Of a DNA stretch of 35,445 nucleotides, positions 2,381-35,445 are shown piece after piece (the first letter of the stretch is position 1; every line of letters begins with the position of its first letter). Under the pieces are notes generated by a model, which had not been told where the DNA came from, searched no databases, and saw only the letters and a list, made by a program, of their open reading frames with translations. Location of the stretch: contig DATNQN010000123.1 in the NCBI GenBank assembly GCA_036703985.1, positions 126,816-162,260 on the forward strand. The letters run 5' to 3'. A program made the translations under genes and the position numbers. Source of the DNA: Leptolyngbyaceae cyanobacterium. GTDB lineage: Bacteria > Cyanobacteriota > Cyanobacteriia > Cyanobacteriales > Aerosakkonemataceae.

Positions 2381-2528
2381 TAACGCAAGTTGCTAGTTAC
2401 AAATATTGACCTTTAGATACCCCTTGCATCCCCCTTAATAGGGGGACGCGAGAAGGCAGTCCCCCCCTTATTAAGGTGGGTTAGGGGGGATCTAAAGCGG
2501 CTAAATTCATAACTGGCAACTTGCGTTA
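2381..2528. mobile_element. MITE-like element (~148 bp) with 19-bp TIR TAACGCAAGTTGC(T/C)AGTTA, flanked by TA on both sides, internal GC-rich mini-palindromes (CCCCTTAATAGGGGG)
   Basis: The terminal inverted repeats 2381-2399 and 2510-2528 match 18 of 19 positions. A TA dinucleotide on each side is consistent with TA target duplication. There is no coding capacity. A second, more diverged copy lies at 10931-11068. Confidence 0.6.
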
Positions 2529-2794
2529 GATAGTTAAGCCATATTTTGCGATCGTTTGCCAGATAATTTAAGTTTAGTCACTATCAAATCAGCAAAATAA
2601 AGTATAATTGAAAACCAGAAACGAGTGACTTCTTTCTCATCTTTAACTCAAACACTGTAGAAATGCTTCGATCGAATCTCTCTATGCCAACGGAAAACCG
2701 CAAAATTAAGTTGTAGGAATATTAGCGGTCAAAAAGGCCAAAGTAAAACACCGCTCGATCGAACAACATCAGGGAAAAGGTAGAAGGAAAGCAT

Positions 2795-5700
2795 ATGAAA
2801 CACTGGTGCTACTTCGTCAAGAAAAGGAACGCACTAATCTTTCAGCAGAAATTTAAAAAAAGTGCGATCGCTATTATTCTGGTGGGAAATGGATCGATCG
2901 CAATTCCGAGTCATCCCGCTTTCGCTCAAATCGTCCCCGATACCACTTTAGGTAACGAAAATTCGACAGTTACGCCCATTGATTCCACATTCGATCGCAT
3001 TGACGGCGGCGCAACTAGAGGAATTAACTTATTTCATAGCTTTCAAGAGTTTAACATTGACGAAGGACGAGGAGTTTATTTCACAAATCCCGCAGGCATT
3101 CAAAACATTTTCAGTCGGGTAACGGGAACAAATCTTTCCCAAATTTTAGGAACTCTCGGCGTTACTGGCGGTAATGCCAGCTTATTTTTAATTAACCCAA
3201 ATGGCATCATTTTCGGGCAGAATGCTCGTTTGGATGTGGCAGGTTCATTTGTGGGAACAACCGCTCATGCAGTTCAATTCGGGCAACAAGGTTTTTTTAG
3301 TGCTGCTGCGCCAAACGTTCCGCAAATCCTTACAGTCAATCCTTCTGCTTTTCTATTCAATCAAATTACTGGCCCGATCGTCAATCAATCCACCGCCGAT
3401 GAAACGGGAATGCAAGTTCCGGCGGGTGCAAGTTTAATGCTAGTTGGTGGTGACATCACCTTAGACGGCGGTATCCTCCAAGCACCGGGAGGACGCATAG
3501 AATTAGGCGGTTTAGCAGACAAAGGAAGCATTCAAATTAACTGGGAAGCAAATAATCTCAATTTAACTTTTCCCACCGATGTAAAACGTGCAAATGTCTC
3601 CTTAGAAAATAACGCTCGCGTCGATGTCAGTGCTGACGGTGGTGGAAATATTGCTATTAATGTTGATAATTTGAATGTAACGGGAAAAAGTCAAATCCGG
3701 GCAGGGATAGCATCACAATTAGGTACAGTTGATGCTCAAGCGGGAAATATTGATATTAATGCTACTGGAACGCTTAGTTTAACTGATGCTAGCTTGATTT
3801 CTAATGCCGTGCAATCGGAAGCGATCGGTAAAGGAGGAAACGTTAACATTACCGTAGGAGCGCTTTCTGTTACCGAGCAAGCAGAACTGCAAACTCTCAC
3901 TCAAGGACAGGGAGATGCAGGCAATATTATGATTAAAGCTAACGATAACGTTAACTTTAATCAAAGTTTTGTTTTCAGTGGAATAACCGAAGAAGCTATC
4001 GGTAATGCGGGAAATATTGAGATTGATACTAGTTCCCTTTCTATTAGTAATGGCGCACAACTACAATCCTTAACTAGAGGAGAGGGAAATGCAGGAAATA
4101 TTGCTATTCGAGTAGAAGATGCAGTTACTTTAGATGGAATGGTAGAAGATACTGCTCCCAGCGGAATCACTAGTTTGGTGGAATTGGGAGCATTTGGTAA
4201 AGGCGGTGATATTACTATTCAAGGACGATCGATTTTCGTAACGAATGGCGCTCAATTAGGTACTAGCACTTTCGGACAAGGTGATGCCGGAAAAATCAAC
4301 ATTCAAGCCACAGAAAAAGTAGTATTTGATGGGGGATTAAGTAACACTTTTGCCACTGCTATTTTTAGTAACGTAACAGAGGGAGCAGTTGGTAATGCAG
4401 GGGGTATTAATATCACTGCCGGATCGTTATTTGTTAATAATAGTGCTTTTGTGGATTCTAGCACTTTTGGCGAAGGAAATGGAGGTGATTTATCCATTCA
4501 AACCAATGATGATATATCTGTGGTGGCAGGAAGCATTCAAGCTACAGTAGGAGAGCGTGCGATTGGTAATGCTGGTAATATTAATATTCAGGGCCGATCG
4601 CTTTTTGTCAGTGATGGCGGTTTATTAATCACTCGCACGAATGGAGAAGGAAATGCTGGCAATATAAATGTGAATGTAACCGATATTGCCATTATTACGG
4701 GAGTGCCAAAAAATGAAGATCCTTCGATAATTCAAACATTAGCTAGTGGAATTTATAGCAATACAGAGTTTGGTGCGATCGGTGATGGCGGTAACATTCA
4801 CATCCAAGCTGGAACGCTAAATGTTACCGATGGCGCTCAAATTAATGCCAGTACAATTAGCACTGGCAAAGCAGGAAATATTAATATAGTGGTGGGAAAT
4901 GCCCTAACAATTGCAGGAGAAAATGACTTTCCCAGCCGCAGTCAAATTACCAGTCGAGTCGGTGGATTTAGTTCTAATAATACGGTGCTATTTGCGGAAG
5001 GAGATGGAGGCGATATTACCATCAAAGCGGGATCGTTAGCATTACTTGACGGCGCAACTATAGATACAATTACCTTTGGCTTGGGAGATGCCGGCAATAT
5101 CGCTTTTGATGTACGAGATGACTTTACTTTGGCAGAGAGTGCGATCAATAGCCGTGTAGCATTTGGTGCAGAAGGTAAAGGCGGTAACATCAGCGTGCAA
5201 GCAGAATCGCTTTCCGTGAAGGAAGGAGCGGAGATCACGGGTAGCTCTTTTGGCAACGGAAATGCTGGCAATATAGATATTTCAGTTCGCGATCGCATTT
5301 CTTTAACAGGGGTAGATGATGAGTATGCCAGCCAAATTACTACGGAGGTTGGTGGTGCTAGTACTGGTAAAGCCGGATACATTCAGCTAAAAGCGCGATC
5401 GCTAGAAATTACAGATGGTGCGCTACTATCTTCTCGCACCTTTGCAGAAGGAGATGCTGGCAATATTTCCATTGAAGCAACTGACTCGGTTACTATTTCT
5501 GGAACAGCACAACCAACCTCCCCTGATTCGCTCATCAAAGGCATATCAAGCGGCATATTTACTAGTAGTGAAGGGCCGATTGAATTTAGCGGAATTGGCG
5601 GTGAAATTACCCTCACCACTGGCACTTTGCAAGTAACCAAAGGAGCAGTTTTAAGTGCTACCACATTAAGCGGATCTCCGGGCGGAAATATTGTAGTTAA

Positions 5701-6802
5701 TGCCAATCGTTTAGAATTATCCGATGGAGGACAATTACTCACCACAACTTTTAGCGATGGCAATGCTGGAAATATCACTGTTAAGGCAAATGAAAATATA
5801 ATTATTTCAGGAAGCGATCCTACATTTACCGATCGATTAGCCCAACTACAAAATGTGCAAAATGAAGCCTCATCTGAGGGTTTTGAATCGATCAATTTAA
5901 TCGGTCAAAGTCCCGCCAGTGGATTATTTGCTAATACCGGAAAAGATTCCACAGGTACGGGGGGAAACTTGACAATTTTTGCTAACCAGTTGACTATTGC
6001 AAATGAAGCCGCAGCCGCAGTCACCAGCCAAGGAACCGGAGGTGCAGGTACGTTAAAAATAACCGCTCCTATCTTGCAATTAAGCAATAGTAATTTAACT
6101 GCCGACACTCAAGAAAAAGGGCAAGGAAATATTGAATTAAACGCACAAAATATCCTACTGCGTCGCAACAGTTTAATTAGTACCAACGCAGGAAACACCA
6201 CAGGCGGTAATATTGCGATCGATACGCAATTATTAACCGCCCTAGAAAATAGCGATATTACAGCCAATGCAGTAGCAGGTTTTGGCGGTAGAGTTAACAT
6301 CACCGCCCAAGGGGTTATTGGCAGTCAGTTTCGCGCACAACAAACCCCAAACAGTGACATCACCGCCACATCTGAATTAGGTTCGCAATTTAGCGGCATT
6401 GTAGAAATTAATACCCCCGAAGTTGACCCCAGCGCGGGATTAATAGAATTGCCAGAAAATGTATTGGATATTAACCGATTAGTTGCCCAAAGTTGCCCAG
6501 CCAATCCTAACGAACAAGGTAGCGAATTTTTCATTACCGGACGCGCTGGTTTACCCCCCAATCCCAATGAAGCCCTCAGCGATGAAGCGACTTGGATAGA
6601 TTTAAGACCAACTAATAAAGCTTCAAATAATCAAACTCAAACACCAATAAGCGATCGTCAATTCTCTCCTCATACTACCAAAATAGTCGAAGCTACAGGT
6701 TGGGCGATCGCACCCGATGGTAAGCTAATCTTAATCGCCAATTCACTTAATCCCACACCCCATTCCCCAACATTCACCCCCCCTTCCTGCCAAAACAAGT
6801 AA
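2795..6802 (+). CDS. TpsA-like large exoprotein: N-terminal two-partner-secretion (haemagglutination activity) domain followed by long beta-helical G-x-G-N-A-G-N-I repeat region and a non-repetitive C-terminal ~250 aa
   Basis: The TPS-domain hallmarks include NPNGI (LINPNGIIFG, nt ~3194-3205) and the FSRVTG...LGTLGVTGGNASLFL context. About 25 degenerate repeats of G(E/Q)G(D/N)AGNIxI follow. The extended N-terminal signal region is typical of TpsA proteins. Confidence 0.85.
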   Translation: MKHWCYFVKKRNALIFQQKFKKSAIAIILVGNGSIAIPSHPAFAQIVPDTTLGNENSTVTPIDSTFDRIDGGATRGINLFHSFQEFNIDEGRGVYFTNPAGIQNIFSRVTGTNLSQILGTLGVTGGNASLFLINPNGIIFGQNARLDVAGSFVGTTAHAVQFGQQGFFSAAAPNVPQILTVNPSAFLFNQITGPIVNQSTADETGMQVPAGASLMLVGGDITLDGGILQAPGGRIELGGLADKGSIQINWEANNLNLTFPTDVKRANVSLENNARVDVSADGGGNIAINVDNLNVTGKSQIRAGIASQLGTVDAQAGNIDINATGTLSLTDASLISNAVQSEAIGKGGNVNITVGALSVTEQAELQTLTQGQGDAGNIMIKANDNVNFNQSFVFSGITEEAIGNAGNIEIDTSSLSISNGAQLQSLTRGEGNAGNIAIRVEDAVTLDGMVEDTAPSGITSLVELGAFGKGGDITIQGRSIFVTNGAQLGTSTFGQGDAGKINIQATEKVVFDGGLSNTFATAIFSNVTEGAVGNAGGINITAGSLFVNNSAFVDSSTFGEGNGGDLSIQTNDDISVVAGSIQATVGERAIGNAGNINIQGRSLFVSDGGLLITRTNGEGNAGNINVNVTDIAIITGVPKNEDPSIIQTLASGIYSNTEFGAIGDGGNIHIQAGTLNVTDGAQINASTISTGKAGNINIVVGNALTIAGENDFPSRSQITSRVGGFSSNNTVLFAEGDGGDITIKAGSLALLDGATIDTITFGLGDAGNIAFDVRDDFTLAESAINSRVAFGAEGKGGNISVQAESLSVKEGAEITGSSFGNGNAGNIDISVRDRISLTGVDDEYASQITTEVGGASTGKAGYIQLKARSLEITDGALLSSRTFAEGDAGNISIEATDSVTISGTAQPTSPDSLIKGISSGIFTSSEGPIEFSGIGGEITLTTGTLQVTKGAVLSATTLSGSPGGNIVVNANRLELSDGGQLLTTTFSDGNAGNITVKANENIIISGSDPTFTDRLAQLQNVQNEASSEGFESINLIGQSPASGLFANTGKDSTGTGGNLTIFANQLTIANEAAAAVTSQGTGGAGTLKITAPILQLSNSNLTADTQEKGQGNIELNAQNILLRRNSLISTNAGNTTGGNIAIDTQLLTALENSDITANAVAGFGGRVNITAQGVIGSQFRAQQTPNSDITATSELGSQFSGIVEINTPEVDPSAGLIELPENVLDINRLVAQSCPANPNEQGSEFFITGRAGLPPNPNEALSDEATWIDLRPTNKASNNQTQTPISDRQFSPHTTKIVEATGWAIAPDGKLILIANSLNPTPHSPTFTPPSCQNK

Positions 6803-6818
6803 AAACTTAATTAAGTAG

Positions 6819-6846
6819 GGTGCGTTAGCTTAAGCGTAACGCACCA
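6819..6846. terminator. stem-loop GGTGCGTTA-gcttaagcg-TAACGCACC directly 3' of the TpsA-like gene and of the convergent FGGY kinase gene
   Basis: A 9-bp perfect stem read from the sequence. It lies between convergent genes and has no clear U-tract. The motif TAGGGTGCGTTAG also occurs in reverse complement at window positions 1-23. Confidence 0.4.
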
Positions 6847-6864
6847 TATCCAAACTACCTGTTC

Positions 6865-6890
6865 GTAGTGAGGACTTTAGTCCTCACTAC
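6865..6890. repeat. 26-bp perfect palindromic SDR GTAGTGAGGACTTTAGTCCTCACTAC; contains the stop codon and last codons (..VCSED*) of the FGGY kinase gene
   Basis: Palindrome read directly from the sequence. The same unit recurs at 7714-7767, 16477-16557 and 23341-23366. Confidence 0.85.
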
Positions 6891-8319
6891 AAACTGTGAT
6901 ATCATTCCCAACACCCCTCATCGCCAACAGCGCCGTACCATAAGCAGCAGCAGTATTCACTGGCGGTAAAATAGGTACTTTTAAATAACGAGCGCGAATT
7001 GCCATCCAAGTAGGATTCTTTGCACCACCGCCAGCAGTATAAACGCGAGTTAACGGCGTTGCACCAAATTGTTGCAATAACTGATAACCCCGTGCTTCAA
7101 TCCGAGCAATACTTTCCAACAAACCATGCAAAAATTCCGCTGGATTTTCCGGTCGAGGTGATAACTTTGGCTGCAAATTCGGGTCATTAATAGGAAAGCG
7201 ATCTCCTGGTTTCAACAAAGGATAATAATCAAGCAAAATCTCGTTTTCTCCATCAATTTCTTTACTTAAATTTTCCAATTCACTATCAGTAAAAAACTGC
7301 CGCAACACCGCACCACCAGTATTAGACGCACCTCCAACTAACCATAAATCAGACCTCGCCCCCAACCCCTCTCCTGCAAGGAGAGGGGAGTAATTCTCCC
7401 CCCTTCCCTGGTAGGGAAGGGGGGCTGGGGGGGTTAGGTTTATTGGTAACCTATGACTGTAAATTCCATATTTTGCATCATCTACGCGAGTGCGACTCAA
7501 CAATTTAATCACCAAAGTAGAACCCAAAGATGTACTAGCTTCACCGGGAGAAGTTGCACCGCTAGCAAGAAATGCGGCAATACTATCAGTAGTCCCCGCA
7601 CAAACTACGCAATCTTTTCTTAAACCTAAACTATGAGCAATTTCCAATGTTACTTCACCTATCGGAGTTCCCGGTGCAACAACTTCCGGCAATTGTATCG
7701 ATATATCTTCTAAGTTCGTAGTGAGGACTTCAGTCCTCAAAAAAGGACTAAAGTCCTTACTACAAACTAGCCATTCCGGATAACAGAGATTTTCCACATC
7801 GTAACCGAGTTTCAAAGCATTGTGATAATCACTAATTCCTAATTTTCCATGTAATAAAAAAGCCAACCAATCTGCCTGATGCAAAAAATAAAACCTTCTC
7901 TTATCCCCCCCTTGGTAAGGGGGGTTAGGGGGAATCTTTTCTAACCACCAGAAGAGTTTGGCGAGGGAAGAAGTAGCGCTGATTACGGTATGGTTTGGCG
8001 GTGCAATTTCCCTCACTTTATCCAATACTTCTGCACCCCGCGCATCGTTATACAAAAGCGGTTCATCAATTGGATTACCAGCAGCATCACAAAGTAGCAC
8101 GGTAGAGGAAGTCCCGTTCATACAAATCGCTTTAATTTGCTCCCGTAGTTGTTGAGGAATTTGGTGAATGAGAGAAAACAAAGCTTGCTGCCAAAGGTTT
8201 GCTAAATTTACTGAATTTTCAAATGGATATTGCGTTTCAGTTTCGATAATTCCTGTTTCATTGATTAATATTGCCCGTGCGCCAGATGTACCAAAATCGA
8301 TGCCAAGGTAGAGGTTCAT
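6877..8319 (-). CDS. FGGY-family carbohydrate kinase (xylulokinase/glycerol-kinase-like)
   Basis: N-terminus MNLYLGIDFGTSGARAILI is the FGGY N-terminal ATPase signature. The protein is 480 aa. The frame is intact despite four repeat insertions (see the repeat features). Confidence 0.8.
   Translation of the reverse strand: MNLYLGIDFGTSGARAILINETGIIETETQYPFENSVNLANLWQQALFSLIHQIPQQLREQIKAICMNGTSSTVLLCDAAGNPIDEPLLYNDARGAEVLDKVREIAPPNHTVISATSSLAKLFWWLEKIPPNPPYQGGDKRRFYFLHQADWLAFLLHGKLGISDYHNALKLGYDVENLCYPEWLVCSKDFSPFLRTEVLTTNLEDISIQLPEVVAPGTPIGEVTLEIAHSLGLRKDCVVCAGTTDSIAAFLASGATSPGEASTSLGSTLVIKLLSRTRVDDAKYGIYSHRLPINLTPPAPLPYQGRGENYSPLLAGEGLGARSDLWLVGGASNTGGAVLRQFFTDSELENLSKEIDGENEILLDYYPLLKPGDRFPINDPNLQPKLSPRPENPAEFLHGLLESIARIEARGYQLLQQFGATPLTRVYTAGGGAKNPTWMAIRARYLKVPILPPVNTAAAYGTALLAMRGVGNDITVCSED
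7362..7436. repeat. two GC-rich mini-palindromes (CCCCTCTCCTGCAAGGAGAGGGG at 7366-7388; CCCCCCTTCCCtggtaGGGAAGGGGGG at 7398-7424) inserted in-frame in the FGGY kinase CDS
   Basis: Perfect palindromes read from the sequence. They translate to ..LPYQGRGENYSPLLAGEGLGA.. inside the kinase. The same C-run/TT..AA/G-run architecture is found inside the MITE-like elements. Confidence 0.7.
7714..7767. repeat. compound palindromic SDR (GTAGTGAGGACTTCAGTCCTC-AAAAAA-GGACTAAAGTCCTTACTAC) inserted in-frame in the FGGY kinase CDS
   Basis: Same family as 6865-6890. It translates to ..LVCSKDFSPFLRTEVLTT.. on the minus strand. Confidence 0.8.
7903..7936. repeat. GC-rich mini-palindrome CCCCCCCTTGGTAAGGGGGG + TTAGGGGG inserted in-frame in the FGGY kinase CDS
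   Basis: Palindrome read from the sequence. It translates to ..IPPNPPYQGGDKR.. in the kinase. Confidence 0.7.
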
Positions 8320-10852: not shown

Positions 10853-10885
10853 GATTTATCAACCTTTGCGGATTATGGGAGAATT

Positions 10886-10927
10886 CAGAAGTCAGAATTC
10901 AGGAGTCAGGAGTCAGGAGTCAGAATT
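10886..10927. repeat. tandem heptamer array (AGAAGTC AGAATTC AGGAGTC x3 AGAATTT)
   Basis: A 7-bp periodicity over 6 units read from the sequence. It lies immediately upstream (5') of the M50 protease start codon and abuts the MITE-like element. Confidence 0.8.
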
Positions 10928-10930
10928 TAT

Positions 10931-11068
10931 TAACGTAAATTGCTAGTTATAATCGATCCCCCCCTAACCCCCCTTAAAAAGGGGGGAACCGGATCTCTTA
11001 GTCTCCCTTTTAAAAAAAATGCAAGGGGGATCTAAAACGCCTAAACTCATAACTAGCAACTTGGGTTA
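10931..11068. mobile_element. second, diverged copy of the MITE-like element (TIR TAACGTAAATTGCTAGTTA / TAACTAGCAACTTGGGTTA), TA-flanked
   Basis: It shares TIR cores and internal blocks with 2381-2528 (GATCCCCCC, CCCCTTAA..GGGG, GGGGGATCTAAA.CG.CTAAA.TCATAACT). The TIRs carry three mismatches. Confidence 0.55.
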
Positions 11069-11115
11069 GTCGTTAACATAATTCTGACTCGGAATCAAAA
11101 CGGCTACCAGTAAAT

Positions 11116-16476: not shown

Positions 16477-16557
16477 CAAAAGGACTAAAGTCCTTACTAC
16501 AAACCATAAAAATTAAATTGTTAGTTCGTTTGTAGTGAGGACTTCAGTCCTCAAACC
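16477..16557. repeat. compound SDR: two inverted copies of the GTAGTGAGGACT..AGTCCTCACTAC-family unit (16477-16504 and 16528-16557) separated by 23 bp, between gyrA stop and lnt start
   Basis: Read from the sequence. The second unit contains an in-frame ATG (16535) that the ORF track used as the lnt start. Confidence 0.8.
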
Positions 16558-20121: not shown

Positions 20122-20130
20122 CGCTGGGCA

Positions 20131-20264
20131 ATGGTCATCAGTCATTTGTCATTAGTTATTAGTTATTAGTTATTAGTTAGTTTGCATTTACCACTAACCA
20201 CTAACTAATTAACAATCACTATTTTCCGATCGCAAATGACCGATGACCAATGACCAATGACCAA
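20131..20264. repeat. long imperfect hairpin built from heptamer arrays (ATGGTCA.., TAGTTAT x4 | ..CTAACCA, GACCAAT x3) between convergent RTX gene and cysH
   Basis: The left half (GGTCAT.., TAGTTAT array) is the reverse complement of the right half (ACTAACC.., ATGACC/GACCAAT array). GACCAAT is the reverse complement of STRR2. The array abuts the cysH TAA stop at 20265-20267. Confidence 0.8.
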
Positions 20265-27080: not shown

Positions 27081-27670
27081 AATAAAGTATTAAAATTGCA
27101 AGTTAGGTGAATTTGATATACACTCCCTATTAAAAGTTTGTCACCCCGAACATTTGTCTGCTTATATTAGGTTATTTTGCGACAAAATACACCATTATTT
27201 TTGTTAATTTTTATATTTAATTAGATAATTTATTAATTCAATAAACGAATGTATTTTGATGTTGGATAATAAATTTGAATATTTTTAATCATCTAAATAA
27301 AGCCAGAGTTTCTACGAAAAAACTAAACGGTAACTTTAAAATTTACGCCGATTGACAATGCGCTGTAAGGAGCGCACTTATTCAACAAACAACTTAACGG
27401 TAATTAATGACGATTCGCAACGGCCATTTGGCCGAAATTCCTACCGCACTTTACTCATAATGAATATTTACTACTCGATCGAGCAATTATCAAAAGGAGA
27501 AGTATTTTGTTTATTTATTACTTAATTTGCACTCAAATCCTTTCTTAAGATAAGCAGAGATTGGTTGGATAAGACCGCAATCGTTGCTGTTTGCTGTTTG
27601 TATAGATAATAAAATTTTGGCACGATGTTAAACTGCGACACCCAACCGATAAACTAAAGTAAGCAACCAC

Positions 27671-28282: not shown

Positions 28283-28310
28283 AACAAAGAAATTTTAGAT
28301 TTTCGATTCC

Positions 28311-28349
28311 ATCTAAAATCTAAAATCTAAAATCTAAAATCTAAAATCG
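28311..28349. repeat. heptamer array AAAATCT x5 between cbiT and cdsA
   Basis: The sequence reads atctaaaatctaaaatctaaaatctaaaatctaaaatcg, directly upstream of the cdsA start. Confidence 0.85.
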
Positions 28350-34266: not shown

Positions 34267-34417
34267 GGGGCTAGGGGCTAGGGGCTAGGGGAAGAGGGGA
34301 AAGGGAGAAAAGGGGAAAGAGAAAATTTTGTGGCTCTTGAATTCTGACTCCTGACTCCTTTCCTTACTCCTGAATTCTGAGTTCTGAATTCTGAATTCTG
34401 AATTCAGCCTTCATCCT
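34262..34417. repeat. composite heptamer arrays (GGGGCTA x3, purine-rich GGGGAAAGGGAGAAAAGGGGAAAGAG, then pyrimidine-rich CTGACTCCTGACTCC.., TGAATTC x4, CCTTCAT x2) forming an imperfect long hairpin between convergent NUDIX and rlmN genes
   Basis: Read from the sequence. The purine-rich left arm partly complements the pyrimidine-rich right arm. The rlmN TGA stop (34418-34420) lies inside the terminal CCTTCATCC unit. Confidence 0.75.
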
Positions 34418-35445
34418 TCATCCTTTAGTTGCTCTTAATTGTCCGCAAGCGGCATCTGCTTCTAATCCTCGCGAATAGCGGACGCTAACTGCAATATGTC
34501 GCTTTTCTAAAGCTGATACGAAAGCTTGAATGCGTTTAGCATTGGGTCTTTGATAATCAGCTTCGTGAATGGGATTGTAAGGAATCAAATTAACGTGACT
34601 TTGGAAACCTTTTATATATTCAGCTAATTCTTGGGCGTGTTCTGGTAAATCATTTAATCCGGCCAAGAGAATATATTCAAAAGTTACTCTTCTGCCAGTT
34701 ATTTTTACATATTCCCGACATTCGGATAGCAAAGTTTCGATCGGATAATGTTTGGCACTGGGAATTAGTTTTTCTCGTAAAGTTTGATTGGATGCGTGCA
34801 GACTAACTGCTAAAGTAACTTGCAATTGATATTCTGCTAAACTGCGAATTTTACCAGGAATGCCAACCGTAGAAATAGTGATTCCTCGTTGTCCAATACC
34901 GACATCTTGATTGAGGGATTTGACGGCTCCAACTACATGATCTACATTCAATAATGGTTCGCCCATACCCATAAAGACAATGTGGCTGACGCGACGTTGA
35001 AAATCTTCTTGAACGGTGAGAACTTGATCGATTATTTCGTGGCGGGCTAGGTTGCGAATGAAACCGCCTTTGCCGGTGGCGCAGAAGTCGCACGCCATTG
35101 GACAACCAACTTGGGAAGAAACGCAAACAGTTAAGCGTTTTTCGGAGGGAATACCGACAGTTTCAATGATGTTTCCATCGTCAAGTTTGAGTAAATATTT
35201 GACGGTTTCATCGCTGGCAACTGAGCGATAATGAATAGTTGCTCGACCAATGTTTATGTCTGCTAAATCTTCTCGCCATTGTTTGGGAAAAACTGTAATT
35301 TCGGCAAGATTACGGATTCCTTTTTCATAAATCCATTGATGTAATTGACGACCTCGATATGCTGGTTGTCCTTGTTGTTTTACCCAATCGGTTAATTCTG
35401 TTAAATTTGCACCGAGTAGGGGTGGGGAGATGGGGGGATGGGGGG
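34418..35445 (-). CDS. rlmN: 23S rRNA (adenine2503-C2)-methyltransferase / tRNA m2A37 methyltransferase RlmN, radical SAM; 5' end runs off the window
   Basis: The radical-SAM CxxxCxxC motif reads ..[16 protein letters not shown]. Manual translation upstream of the ORF-track M (35098) stays open to the window edge and gives the RlmN N-terminal domain (..[50 protein letters not shown]..). The C-terminal Cys reads ..ADAACGQL. Confidence 0.9.

Follow-up and report, generated by a model that had tools for sequence, protein, structure and literature searches.

Results

The locus and its features

The window, that is the whole stretch of 35,445 nucleotides analysed here, contains a gene for an FGGY carbohydrate kinase with several small palindromic repeats lodged in its coding sequence, as well as related repeats outside the gene. 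The features are as follows.

6877..8319, minus strand: FGGY carbohydrate kinase CDS, ribulokinase-like SePSK/AtXK-1 subfamily, 480 aa, intact ORF
7891..7944, minus strand: insert A, aa 126-143, loop LEKIPPNPPYQGGDKRRF, net +24 nt according to codon alignments
7714..7767, minus strand: insert B, aa 185-202, peptide VCSKDFSPFLRTEVLTT(N), net +51 nt
7351..7446, minus strand: insert C, aa 292-323, 32 codons in place of one Gly codon, net +93 nt
6861..6894, no strand assigned: 34-nt palindrome GTTTGTAGTGAGGACTAAAGTCCTCACTACGAAC (gene strand) with one G:T position, encoding VCSED
2381..2529, no strand assigned: MITE-like element 1, TAACGCAAGTTGCTAGTTA terminal inverted repeats, poly-C/poly-G mini-hairpin interior
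10931..11069, no strand assigned: MITE-like element 2, same family as element 1, interior CCCCCCCTAACCCCCCTTAAAAAGGGGGG
16481..16551, no strand assigned: third locus of the GTAG palindrome family, intergenic (gyrA-like/lnt-like), two half-units around a 23-nt spacer

As originally predicted, the 480-aa frame runs without interruption. Its product passes the Pfam gathering scores of both FGGY_N (59 bits, threshold 28.8) and FGGY_C (48.4 bits, threshold 27), and scores far under the cut-offs of both NCBIfam equivalogs, xylulokinase and ribulokinase. The closest solved relatives by sequence are AtXK-1 and SePSK (phmmer; PDB 5HTR, E 1e-127; 5HTN, E 2e-113). The AlphaFold2 model (pLDDT 83.8, pTM 0.86) predicts a two-domain alpha/beta/alpha/beta/alpha fold, nearest to these same two proteins, and Foldseek comparison of the model with 5HTR and 5HV7 gave E-values of 1e-51 to 1e-53 and target-normalised TM scores of 0.83-0.84.

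SePSK phosphorylates D-ribulose, and its residues D8, T11 and D221 are essential (PMC4880283). Using the catalytic and ATP-pocket roles assigned in that study, we found the counterparts D8, T11 and D245 of the window kinase to be invariant or nearly so among 120 orthologues (window protein included), and the same holds for the ATP-site residues G430, G432, N435 and W438. The window kinase would presumably have retained enzyme activity. It shares the fold of SePSK (Synpcc7942) and Arabidopsis XK-1 with 46-47% identity (PMC4880283; 5HTN, 5HV7, 5HTR), but the solved proteins lack all three internal inserts and the tail. Orthologues are usually 416-430 aa long, compared with 480 aa here, and the extra length is due to the 56-aa net gain of inserts A, B and C together with a slightly longer C-terminal tail. 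A metagenome scan for orthologue DNA returned five distant loci only, 57-63% identical, with genes of normal length.

Anatomy of the internal inserts

Codon alignments with the orthologues show that insert A substitutes for an ancestral 10-aa loop; its core is a poly-C/poly-G hairpin module of 28 nt (7905-7932). Insert B is a long-hairpin variant of a GTAG...CTAC palindrome, with outer arms GTTTGTAGT and ACTACGAAC. Insert C contains two GC mini-hairpins (7398-7424 and 7366-7388) and lies in a beta-turn joining two strands. The original prediction had recognised these hairpins, which are real, but had delimited the insert at 7362-7436, which is too narrow, the full insert spanning 7351-7446. 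The net lengths of the three inserts are each a multiple of three and all are stop-free, A and B in the gene's own frame only. The peptides LVCSKDFSPFLRTEVLTT and PLLAGEGLGA and the tail ..VCSED, quoted in the original prediction, are all present in the translation, in which the peptides EWLVCSK, HRLPINLTPPAPLPYQGR and the C-terminal GNDITVCSED span the junctions. No target-site duplications were seen at the internal inserts. An intein, an intron or a ribosomal bypass was considered and excluded, the segments being far too small and stop-free in frame.

Insert B (-38.7 kcal/mol, z = -8.7) and insert C (-59.4 kcal/mol, z = -4.4) fold into very stable structures, and the insert A hairpin alone folds no better than shuffled sequence (z = -0.8). 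At the protein level, the sole low-confidence stretches of the AlphaFold2 model (residues 131-140, 187-204, 300-322 and 473-480) correspond exactly to the three inserts and the C-terminal segment; mean pLDDT is 54 for residues 131-140 and falls below 50 for 187-204 and 300-322. In the model, all four segments are placed between predicted secondary-structure elements, in agreement with the loop position proposed for them earlier, and the predicted structure suggests that the inserted loops would be exposed at the surface.

The 3' palindrome and the stop codon

A perfect palindrome of 26 bp had been noticed at the 3' end of the gene (6865-6890). It consists of 12-nt arms and a 2-nt centre, and its flanks extend the arms to 16 nt with one G:T, so that the complete unit measures 34 nt (6861-6894). 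It supplies the stop codon, as had been proposed, since the TAA at 6877-6879 sits in its loop. Without the 34 nt, the frame as read off the sequence would continue to ..DITR and end with TAG. The fold of the palindrome reaches -25 kcal/mol (z = -7.7). Its role as a canonical terminator was rejected: there is no T-run behind it and the terminator scan was silent.

A dispersed GTAG...CTAC palindrome family

The GTAGTGAGGACT core is matched 6 times in the window, compared with 0.07 expected, and the family occupies three loci within these 35 kb. Beyond the window we counted at least 120 perfect copies of the palindrome in Nostocales and Oscillatoriales, with the consensus GTTYGTAGTRAGGACTNNAGTCCTYACTACRAAC; among the matches listed they span dozens of genera of filamentous cyanobacteria, and 112 of the 120 perfect copies do not fall in an ORF of at least 150 aa. 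Three perfect copies elsewhere among these 120 listed matches appear intragenic. Two of the three lie upstream of the Pfam domain, probably in 5' leaders, and the third in an ORF without domain, so the 120 listed matches include no verified independent intragenic copy.

Double-foot REPs are tagged by 5' GT[AG]G at the hairpin foot and its complement C[TC]AC on the 3' side (PMC6006769), and the palindrome 6865-6890 carries this tag (GTAGTGAGGACT..AGTCCTCACTAC). REP stems are fully paired over 7-20 nt, with a loop of 2-5 nt and a stem GC content of at least 50%; RNAfold gives the 3' palindrome 15 pairs and a 4-nt loop, within these limits, and the GC content of the 12-nt arm is borderline at 50%. 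According to the cross-genome counts, the palindrome is also multi-copy, dispersed and mainly extragenic, as expected of REPs. By these class features the GTAGTGAGGACT element, called 'SDR' in the original prediction, looks like a "double-foot" GTAG...CTAC REP.

The GTAG superfamily or double-foot REPs, associated with RAYT/TnpA_REP subclass 2.4 (PMC3733652, PMC6006769), have as here a palindrome of 26-34 nt with GTAG/CTAC ends and a 2-nt loop. They too exist in many copies in cyanobacteria, nearly all intergenic and often near ORF 3' ends, with rare in-frame intragenic copies of about 20 aa that are often dimers or long forms. Intragenic REPs are described as often dimeric and coding for 20-30 aa, roughly 10% of them being at ORF ends (PMC3733652), and in-frame copies of cyanobacterial double-foot REPs of RAYT subclass 2.4 are found inside tnpAREP genes (PMC6006769). 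This likeness is one of described features, and not of sequence matched to GTAG-12, -15 or -16. Unlike GTAG REPs, the window palindrome has four extra paired bases (GTTY/RAAC) around the GTAG tag. Nor was a RAYT gene found beside any examined copy: the window ORFs scanned include no transposase or RAYT, and no ORF with the HUH...Y..NP motif was found by a crude regular expression in 910 kb covering 120 repeat-bearing loci. In Rfam, no family reached the gathering score across the window, and over the hairpins only chance sub-threshold miRNA-like matches appeared. A text search of the literature collection used gave no match to the GTAGTGAGGACT string.

GC mini-hairpin modules and MITE-like elements

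The original prediction connected the GC mini-palindromes of the gene to the interior of MITE-like elements, and this connection holds at the nucleotide level. The 28-nt core of insert A matches positions 10960-10987 and 2461-2488, inside the two intergenic elements, with 3 mismatches each. The right-hand module of insert C has a copy in an unrelated locus (L098:3702-3738, 34 of 37 positions), and no second copy of its left-hand module was found in roughly 1 Mb examined.

The two intergenic elements (2381-2529 and 10931-11069) have terminal inverted repeats, a length within 100-300 bp, no ORF and more than one copy, which are the usual marks of MITEs. With TIRs of about 19 nt, a length of about 140-150 bp and a non-coding interior, they are similar to bacterial MITEs such as cyanobacterial Nezha and those of Anabaena and Microcystis (PMC3184786), the comparison being one of structure and not with a named MITE family. 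The TIR motif AAGTTGCTAGTTA is absent at the borders of inserts A and C; it was found only in the two intergenic elements, in addition to a weak match at 27093. Inserts A and C thus differ from bacterial MITEs: they match interior hairpin modules only and lack terminal inverted repeats, and therefore do not count as MITE insertions themselves. In Anabaena, fusions of MITEs with ORFs have been described (PMC3184786).

Distribution of the segments among orthologues

The segments are repeat-derived, as had been suspected, with nucleotide-level copies existing elsewhere, and the locus qualifies as a repeat hotspot: GC-rich perfect hairpins number 11 in the window compared with 2.3 in shuffles. With 4% of the window's length, the kinase gene holds four of these 11 (binomial P = 7e-4, post hoc).

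The same residues in repeat-poor relatives would have marked the segments as ancestral, but Nostocales, most other orthologues, SePSK and AtXK-1 do not have them. The expectation of lineage-specific indels was borne out only in part. Of the nine genes aligned first, only those of the window, L002 and L004 contain insert B, which 3 of 120 proteins have. The insert A module, however, recurs at this one position in at least 24 of 120 orthologues, taking the place of the ancestral loop. L001 and L003 have insert C too, L002 has it in part, and many orthologues have insert A. The same sites are moreover re-used. Among the 120 orthologues, 30 hold an insert at site C, the kinds varying widely, and 24-37 hold one at site A, which is about 20-30% for the two sites. 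In L002, site A holds a GTAG half-unit where others have the GC module. Site occupancy implies a minimum of 12-14 changes on the neighbour-joining tree.

Intragenic recombination accounts for this patchy spread better than four private insertions do. The nearest neighbour of the kinase gene changes along its length, and max-chi-square permutation tests (0/300, 0/300 and 1/300) confirm that the gene is a recombination mosaic.

Selection and third-position conservation

Against eight orthologues dN/dS is 0.11-0.15, a sign of purifying selection, with no rate acceleration on the window lineage. Inserts B and C are common to species at dS of about 0.7-1.0, and a relative that is 94% identical (P0121) has kept all four segments with the frame open. 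As the inserts are shared across species and P0121 contains all four segments, the gene would be functional and tolerant of them, not a fresh pseudogene; from its sequence, the kinase gene looks functional despite the inserts.

The inserts themselves display an unusual type of conservation. Third-position identity amounts to 0.82 for insert A, 0.94 for C and 0.78 for B, compared with about 0.62 for the host gene (0.60-0.65 outside the inserts, 0.48-0.80 in their flanks), and the 11 windows that rank highest for third-position identity within the gene all overlap insert A. Amino-acid identity inside the inserts is under the gene average, and their conservation is independent of codon position. 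Such high third-position identity is not expected of a purely passive, old and neutral loop. In view of this, and of the repeated hits by unrelated elements on the same two loops across cyanobacteria, the inserts might not be passive. Intragenic copies could keep exchanging sequence with the dispersed family, whether by gene conversion or by recurrent RAYT-mediated replacement, or they could be selected as DNA or RNA hairpins; we consider this rather improbable. If the inserts did stay in exchange or under selection, the kinase gene would be a natural reporter of repeat turnover.

Discussion

Origin of the repeat segments

We favour, with a probability of roughly 80%, a working ribulokinase-like FGGY kinase whose coding sequence has taken up two unrelated kinds of small palindromic repeats. 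The GTAG...CTAC double-foot REP-type palindrome would have given rise to insert B and to the gene's 3' end, and the poly-C/poly-G mini-hairpin module, present also in the interiors of the local MITE-like elements, would be the source of inserts A and C. The repeats presumably insert roughly anywhere in the genome, in the case of the GTAG element perhaps by the action of a RAYT-type transposase, and selection would purge the insertions that shift the frame, add a stop or strike the folded core. Survivors would then be stop-free segments with lengths in multiples of three, located in a few permissive and probably exposed loops; a further copy, at the very 3' end, would alter just the final residues and the stop codon. 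After fixation, these segments would be translated as disordered loops and inherited, and homologous recombination may move them among related filamentous cyanobacteria, which could produce the patchy pattern of the orthologues.

The original prediction also considered a 'recent pseudogene-in-waiting', that is, a gene having recently lost its function and received four fresh neutral insertions, its frame not yet broken. Four repeat segments in 1.4 kb are an unusual load, and perfect GTAG copies are otherwise nearly never intragenic, none being verified among the 120 matches listed. However, this explanation is very improbable given the low dN/dS on an unaccelerated lineage, the presence of inserts in orthologues of other species at dS 0.7-1.0 and the open frame of P0121 with its four segments; the catalytic and ATP-site residues are also intact, and the internal inserts are stop-free multiples of three. 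A proposal of similarly small probability is that the segments arose in place as lineage-specific Pro/Gly-rich loops of low complexity and are repeat-like by composition alone. Insert A, widespread in one clade and substituting for a loop of similar position, is consistent with it, as is the left-hand module of insert C, which occurs just once in roughly 1 Mb of examined sequence. Yet conservation that is independent of codon position is the pattern of a DNA element, not of a selected peptide, and insert B, like the 3' unit, unmistakably reproduces a 34-nt palindrome present in dozens of genera. The core of insert A agrees in 25 of 28 positions with each of the MITE-like interiors, and the right-hand module of insert C agrees in 34 of 37 with the unrelated locus.

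That the segments are kept for a function of their own is unlikely, and slightly more so than the general possibility of non-passive inserts raised above, but clearly less so than the two preceding explanations. They could act in cis as mRNA or DNA hairpins (in stability, pausing, or as a target for recombination or a transposase) or, as loops, give the protein a new property. The elevated third-position identity combined with low amino-acid identity, the clustering of the 11 top windows on insert A and the high stability of the B, C and 3'-unit hairpins all point in this direction. Tolerance nevertheless fits better, as the elements at the same sites differ and are unrelated between lineages, and most orthologues have none. 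In addition, the insert A hairpin is no more stable than shuffled sequence, carriers show stem-breaking substitutions and no Rfam family is matched; recent recombinational spread, gene conversion with dispersed copies or re-insertion would also give excess conservation. Least probable of all is an assembly artefact. The exact protein does originate from a metagenome-assembled genome, in which repeats could be mis-joined into a gene, but inserts are found at the same codons in independent assemblies (the GenBank genome of Argonema antarcticum, that is L003, several unrelated metagenomes and P0121), and the reading frame is continuous.

Known parallels

The small dispersed repeats SDR1-8 of Nostocaceae are said to be hairpin-forming units of 21-27 nt, reportedly found nested in MITEs and also within protein-coding genes with the frame kept; their mobility was, by the same account, deduced from presence and absence among orthologues. 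The window repeats resemble them as very small hairpin repeats of filamentous cyanobacteria, a likeness by description and not by sequence. SDRs have been reported in Nostocaceae only (PMC5861425), whereas the window palindrome is also present in Microcoleus, Tychonema, Hormoscilla and a Leptolyngbyaceae MAG. The GTAG/CTAC palindrome family now extends beyond Nostocaceae.

Rickettsia palindromic elements (RPEs) are another parallel. In the passages of PMC3733652 and PMC3184786 that cite Ogata et al. 2000, they are presented as in-frame palindromic repeats of genes that are likely functional, several being possible in one gene. RPEs are mostly longer than the window inserts, sequence and host are unrelated and the mechanism of mobilisation is probably unrelated too, so that the analogy is one of outcome, not homology. 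In-frame repeat insertion is thus already documented by RPEs, intragenic REPs and cyanobacterial SDRs, and the kinase gene is a clear but ordinary example of it, revealing no new kind of element and no new mechanism.

The kinase is, for all that, a compact and well-controlled natural example of foreign loop load: its three loops add 56 internal residues, and its C-terminus is rewritten. Comparison material is available in the insert-free solved relatives and in dozens of orthologues whose sites are empty, filled or differently filled. A query of 64 aa made of the joined insert peptides gave one weak match to proteins. For annotators, such segments should be treated as real coding sequence and not as errors.

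An intact FGGY kinase gene with four repeat-derived segments

The open reading frame at 6877-8319 (-) encodes 480 aa without interruption, and the protein is matched by both Pfam FGGY_N and FGGY_C. An identical protein is recorded for a Leptolyngbyaceae metagenome-assembled genome. Orthologues are mostly 416-430 aa long. When the gene was aligned with its eight closest orthologues (loci L001-L008), at both protein and codon level, the extra length fell into three internal segments, inserts A, B and C, whose net lengths are each divisible by three. For inserts A and B, the gene's own frame is the only stop-free one. Thus the FGGY frame is indeed intact despite repeat insertions, as the original prediction proposed, and its proposal that a palindrome at the 3' end provides the stop codon also holds.

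Repeat features of the kinase gene and of the window
7891-7944 (-), insert A, residues 126-143; hairpin core 7905-7932; replaces a 10-aa loop, net +24 nt
7714-7767 (-), insert B, residues 185-202; net +51 nt
7351-7446 (-), insert C, residues 292-323; replaces one Gly, net +93 nt
6861-6894, 3' palindrome of 34 nt containing the 26-bp perfect palindrome 6865-6890; its loop holds the TAA stop, 6877-6879
2381-2529 and 10931-11069, MITE-like elements with common terminal inverted repeats TAACG(C/T)AA(G/A)TTGCTAGTTA and subterminal motif GGGGGATCTAAA
16481-16551, third locus of the GTAG palindrome, between gyrA-like and lnt-like genes

Without the 34 nt of the 3' palindrome, the frame would read ..DITR followed by TAG, so this element, placed in the last codons, would alter the extreme C-terminus alone. 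The GTAGTGAGGACT core occurs 6 times in the window for 0.07 expected, and GC-rich perfect hairpins 11 times versus 2.3 in shuffles; four of these 11 lie within the kinase gene, which represents 4% of the window (P = 7e-4, post hoc). This repeat pattern in the gene is not due to chance.

Of the solved structures, Arabidopsis XK-1 and Synechococcus SePSK come closest, and the AlphaFold2 model of the window protein (pLDDT 83.8, pTM 0.86) superposes on them with target-normalised TM of 0.83-0.84. SePSK phosphorylates D-ribulose and requires D8, T11 and D221 (PMC4880283); the counterparts D8, T11 and D245 are kept in the window protein, together with ATP-pocket residues. Low confidence in the model is limited to residues 131-140, 187-204, 300-322 and 473-480, which are the four repeat-derived segments, each predicted to sit between secondary-structure elements. 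Comparison of the window gene with the eight orthologues gave dN/dS of 0.11-0.15 and no acceleration in the window lineage.

The inserts are also shared: B with L002 and L004, C with L001 and L003 (L002 has a single module), and A with many orthologues. All four segments are present in P0121, an orthologue of 487 aa from another genome, 94% identical, whose frame continues through the 3' palindrome (..VCSEDFSPQIEG). Taken together, the fold, conserved residues, position of the low-confidence segments, low dN/dS, shared inserts and P0121 rule out, as far as sequence allows, the recent pseudogene that had been envisaged as an alternative. Since P0121 reads through the palindrome, the stop in the loop is specific to the window genome. 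This read-through is consistent with a TT instead of AA loop; if so, the loop-encoded stop would have arisen very recently in the window genome.

Probable permissive loops and recombination

Among the 120 orthologues, site C is filled in 30 and site A in 24-37, and an extra N-terminal site after window aa 37, empty in the window gene, has additional residues in 25, in agreement with the proposal that this locus is a hotspot. Just 3 have site B filled. The minimum number of changes on a neighbour-joining tree is 12 for site C, 14 for site A, 10 for the N-terminal site and 2 for site B. Site C inserts are mostly PPLxKGG-type translations of GC hairpins, with some tandem expansions up to 85 aa. 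Orthologues with expanded repeat peptides at this site include P0027 (up to 85 aa, QETHLPPLGKAG five times), P0111 (ANKFSLPSQGI repeats, 53 aa) and P0038.

At the N-terminal site, L001 and L006 carry a poly-C/poly-G segment (..CCCCCCCCTGTTGACGGGGGGG.., translated SFPPPVDGGVGGG) and L007 a different one of 14 codons; P0008 and P0010 are further orthologues to be cited for this site. At site A, L002 (1443-2837) has a GTAG half-unit, GTTCGTAGTGAGGACTTTAGTCC (translated FVVRTLV), where others have the GC module; two unrelated kinds of repeat therefore use this loop. Such sharing points to permissive loops rather than to a DNA target.

Inserts A, B and C pairwise fail the four-gamete test, and when the window is compared with L001-L008 the closest relative changes from one stretch of the gene to the next. 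L003 shares 96% identity with L001 over codons 1-30. With L005 or L006 it shares 97-99% close to the 3' end and 99% in parts of the 3' half, but around site A its identity to both is just 67%. Permutation tests by max-chi-square gave 0/300, 0/300 and 1/300. The kinase gene is visibly a mosaic produced by recombination among related filamentous cyanobacteria, and such exchange between related lineages thus accounts for much of the insert patchiness.

Third codon positions were compared for the window inserts, L001-L008 and the further loci L134-L136. Identity among carriers at these positions is 0.82 for insert A, 0.94 for C and 0.78 for B, against 0.48-0.80 in the flanks and 0.60-0.65 in the rest of the gene; amino-acid identity of the inserts is below the gene average. 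This is the mark of a DNA element, not of a selected peptide. The excess suggests one of three explanations: the inserts are younger, having spread by recombination or been inserted anew; dispersed copies have acted on them by gene conversion; or selection acts on the hairpin.

Origin of the repeat modules

Inserts A and C are made of poly-C/poly-G mini-hairpins. The 28-nt core of insert A has two matches in the window, at 10960-10987 and at 2461-2488, each differing at three positions, and both fall within MITE-like elements of ~140-150 bp sharing ~19-nt terminal inverted repeats, which confirms the suspected tie between GC mini-palindromes and MITE-like interiors. As the MITE terminal repeats were not found at the inserts, these represent interior modules and not MITE insertions. 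The right-hand module of insert C has a copy in the unrelated locus L098 (34/37 positions). No match to a named family was found for the two MITE-like elements.

The consensus of the element that underlies insert B and the kinase 3' end is GTTYGTAGTRAGGACTNNAGTCCTYACTACRAAC. Its fully paired hairpin, with GTAG at the 5' and CTAC at the 3' end, fits the published definition of double-foot REPs, which are linked to RAYT subclass 2.4, abundant in cyanobacteria, and known in frame within tnpAREP genes (PMC6006769). Insert B folds into a single long hairpin (-38.7 kcal/mol, z = -8.7) and behaves as a long or dimer-derived version of the GTAG unit. Scanning one genome per species gave at least 120 perfect copies, carriers including Anabaena, Nostoc, Fischerella, Microcoleus, Tychonema, Hormoscilla and a Leptolyngbyaceae MAG; among the matches listed, 112 of 120 copies are outside any ORF of at least 150 aa. 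Three seemingly internal copies were unconvincing: in two cases the copy lies 5' of the Pfam domain, and the remaining ORF has no domain. No RAYT gene was found among the window ORFs or by a crude motif search in 910 kb of repeat-bearing loci, so that the mobilising enzyme of this palindrome is a presumed one.

The locus at 16481-16551 is inside-out: right half-unit, AT-rich 23-nt spacer, left half-unit. In several Nostocales genomes (L014, L022, L035, L058, L087, L089, L093, L095), the 34-nt palindrome is central in a longer inverted repeat, TGGCATATTATTTTAAGTT ... AACTTAAAATAATATGCCA, and is thus nested within a larger palindromic element.

Cyanobacterial SDRs were reportedly described by Elhai in 2008 as in-frame palindromic repeat insertions; the window palindrome is likened to them by description, not by SDR1-8 sequence. 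In-frame palindromic repeats are already known from GTAG and CGTC REPs and RAYT genes. Cyanobacterial GTAG REPs and intragenic REPs coding for 20-30 aa have been described, ~10% of intragenic copies being located at ORF ends (PMC3733652); Rickettsia RPEs are also inserted in frame (as cited in PMC3733652, PMC3184786), and other repeat-ORF fusions have been reviewed (PMC3184786). The locus shows no new mechanism. It is a rich and clean example, combining two repeat classes, four segments, a hairpin-loop stop codon and good structural references.

Neighbouring features

The kinase gene converges with 2795-6802 (+), whose product of 1335 aa has a TPS (two-partner secretion) domain at its N-terminus and long repeats rich in Gly, Asn and Ala. 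Downstream of the kinase, synteny is not shared with the orthologous loci, which have DUF4327 or a UvrD-type helicase in this place. The 74-nt convergent spacer contains a separate 27-nt near-palindrome at 6819-6845 (GGTGCGTTACGCTTAAGCTAACGCACC on the gene strand), which may be a shared terminator hairpin; no T-run follows it. Short tandem arrays of ~7-nt units (e.g. GAGTCAG, AGTTATT, AATCTAA, GAATTCT) at 10880-10925, 20125-20256, 28292-28347 and 34370-34420 all seem intergenic and look like the STRR heptamer repeats known from filamentous cyanobacteria.
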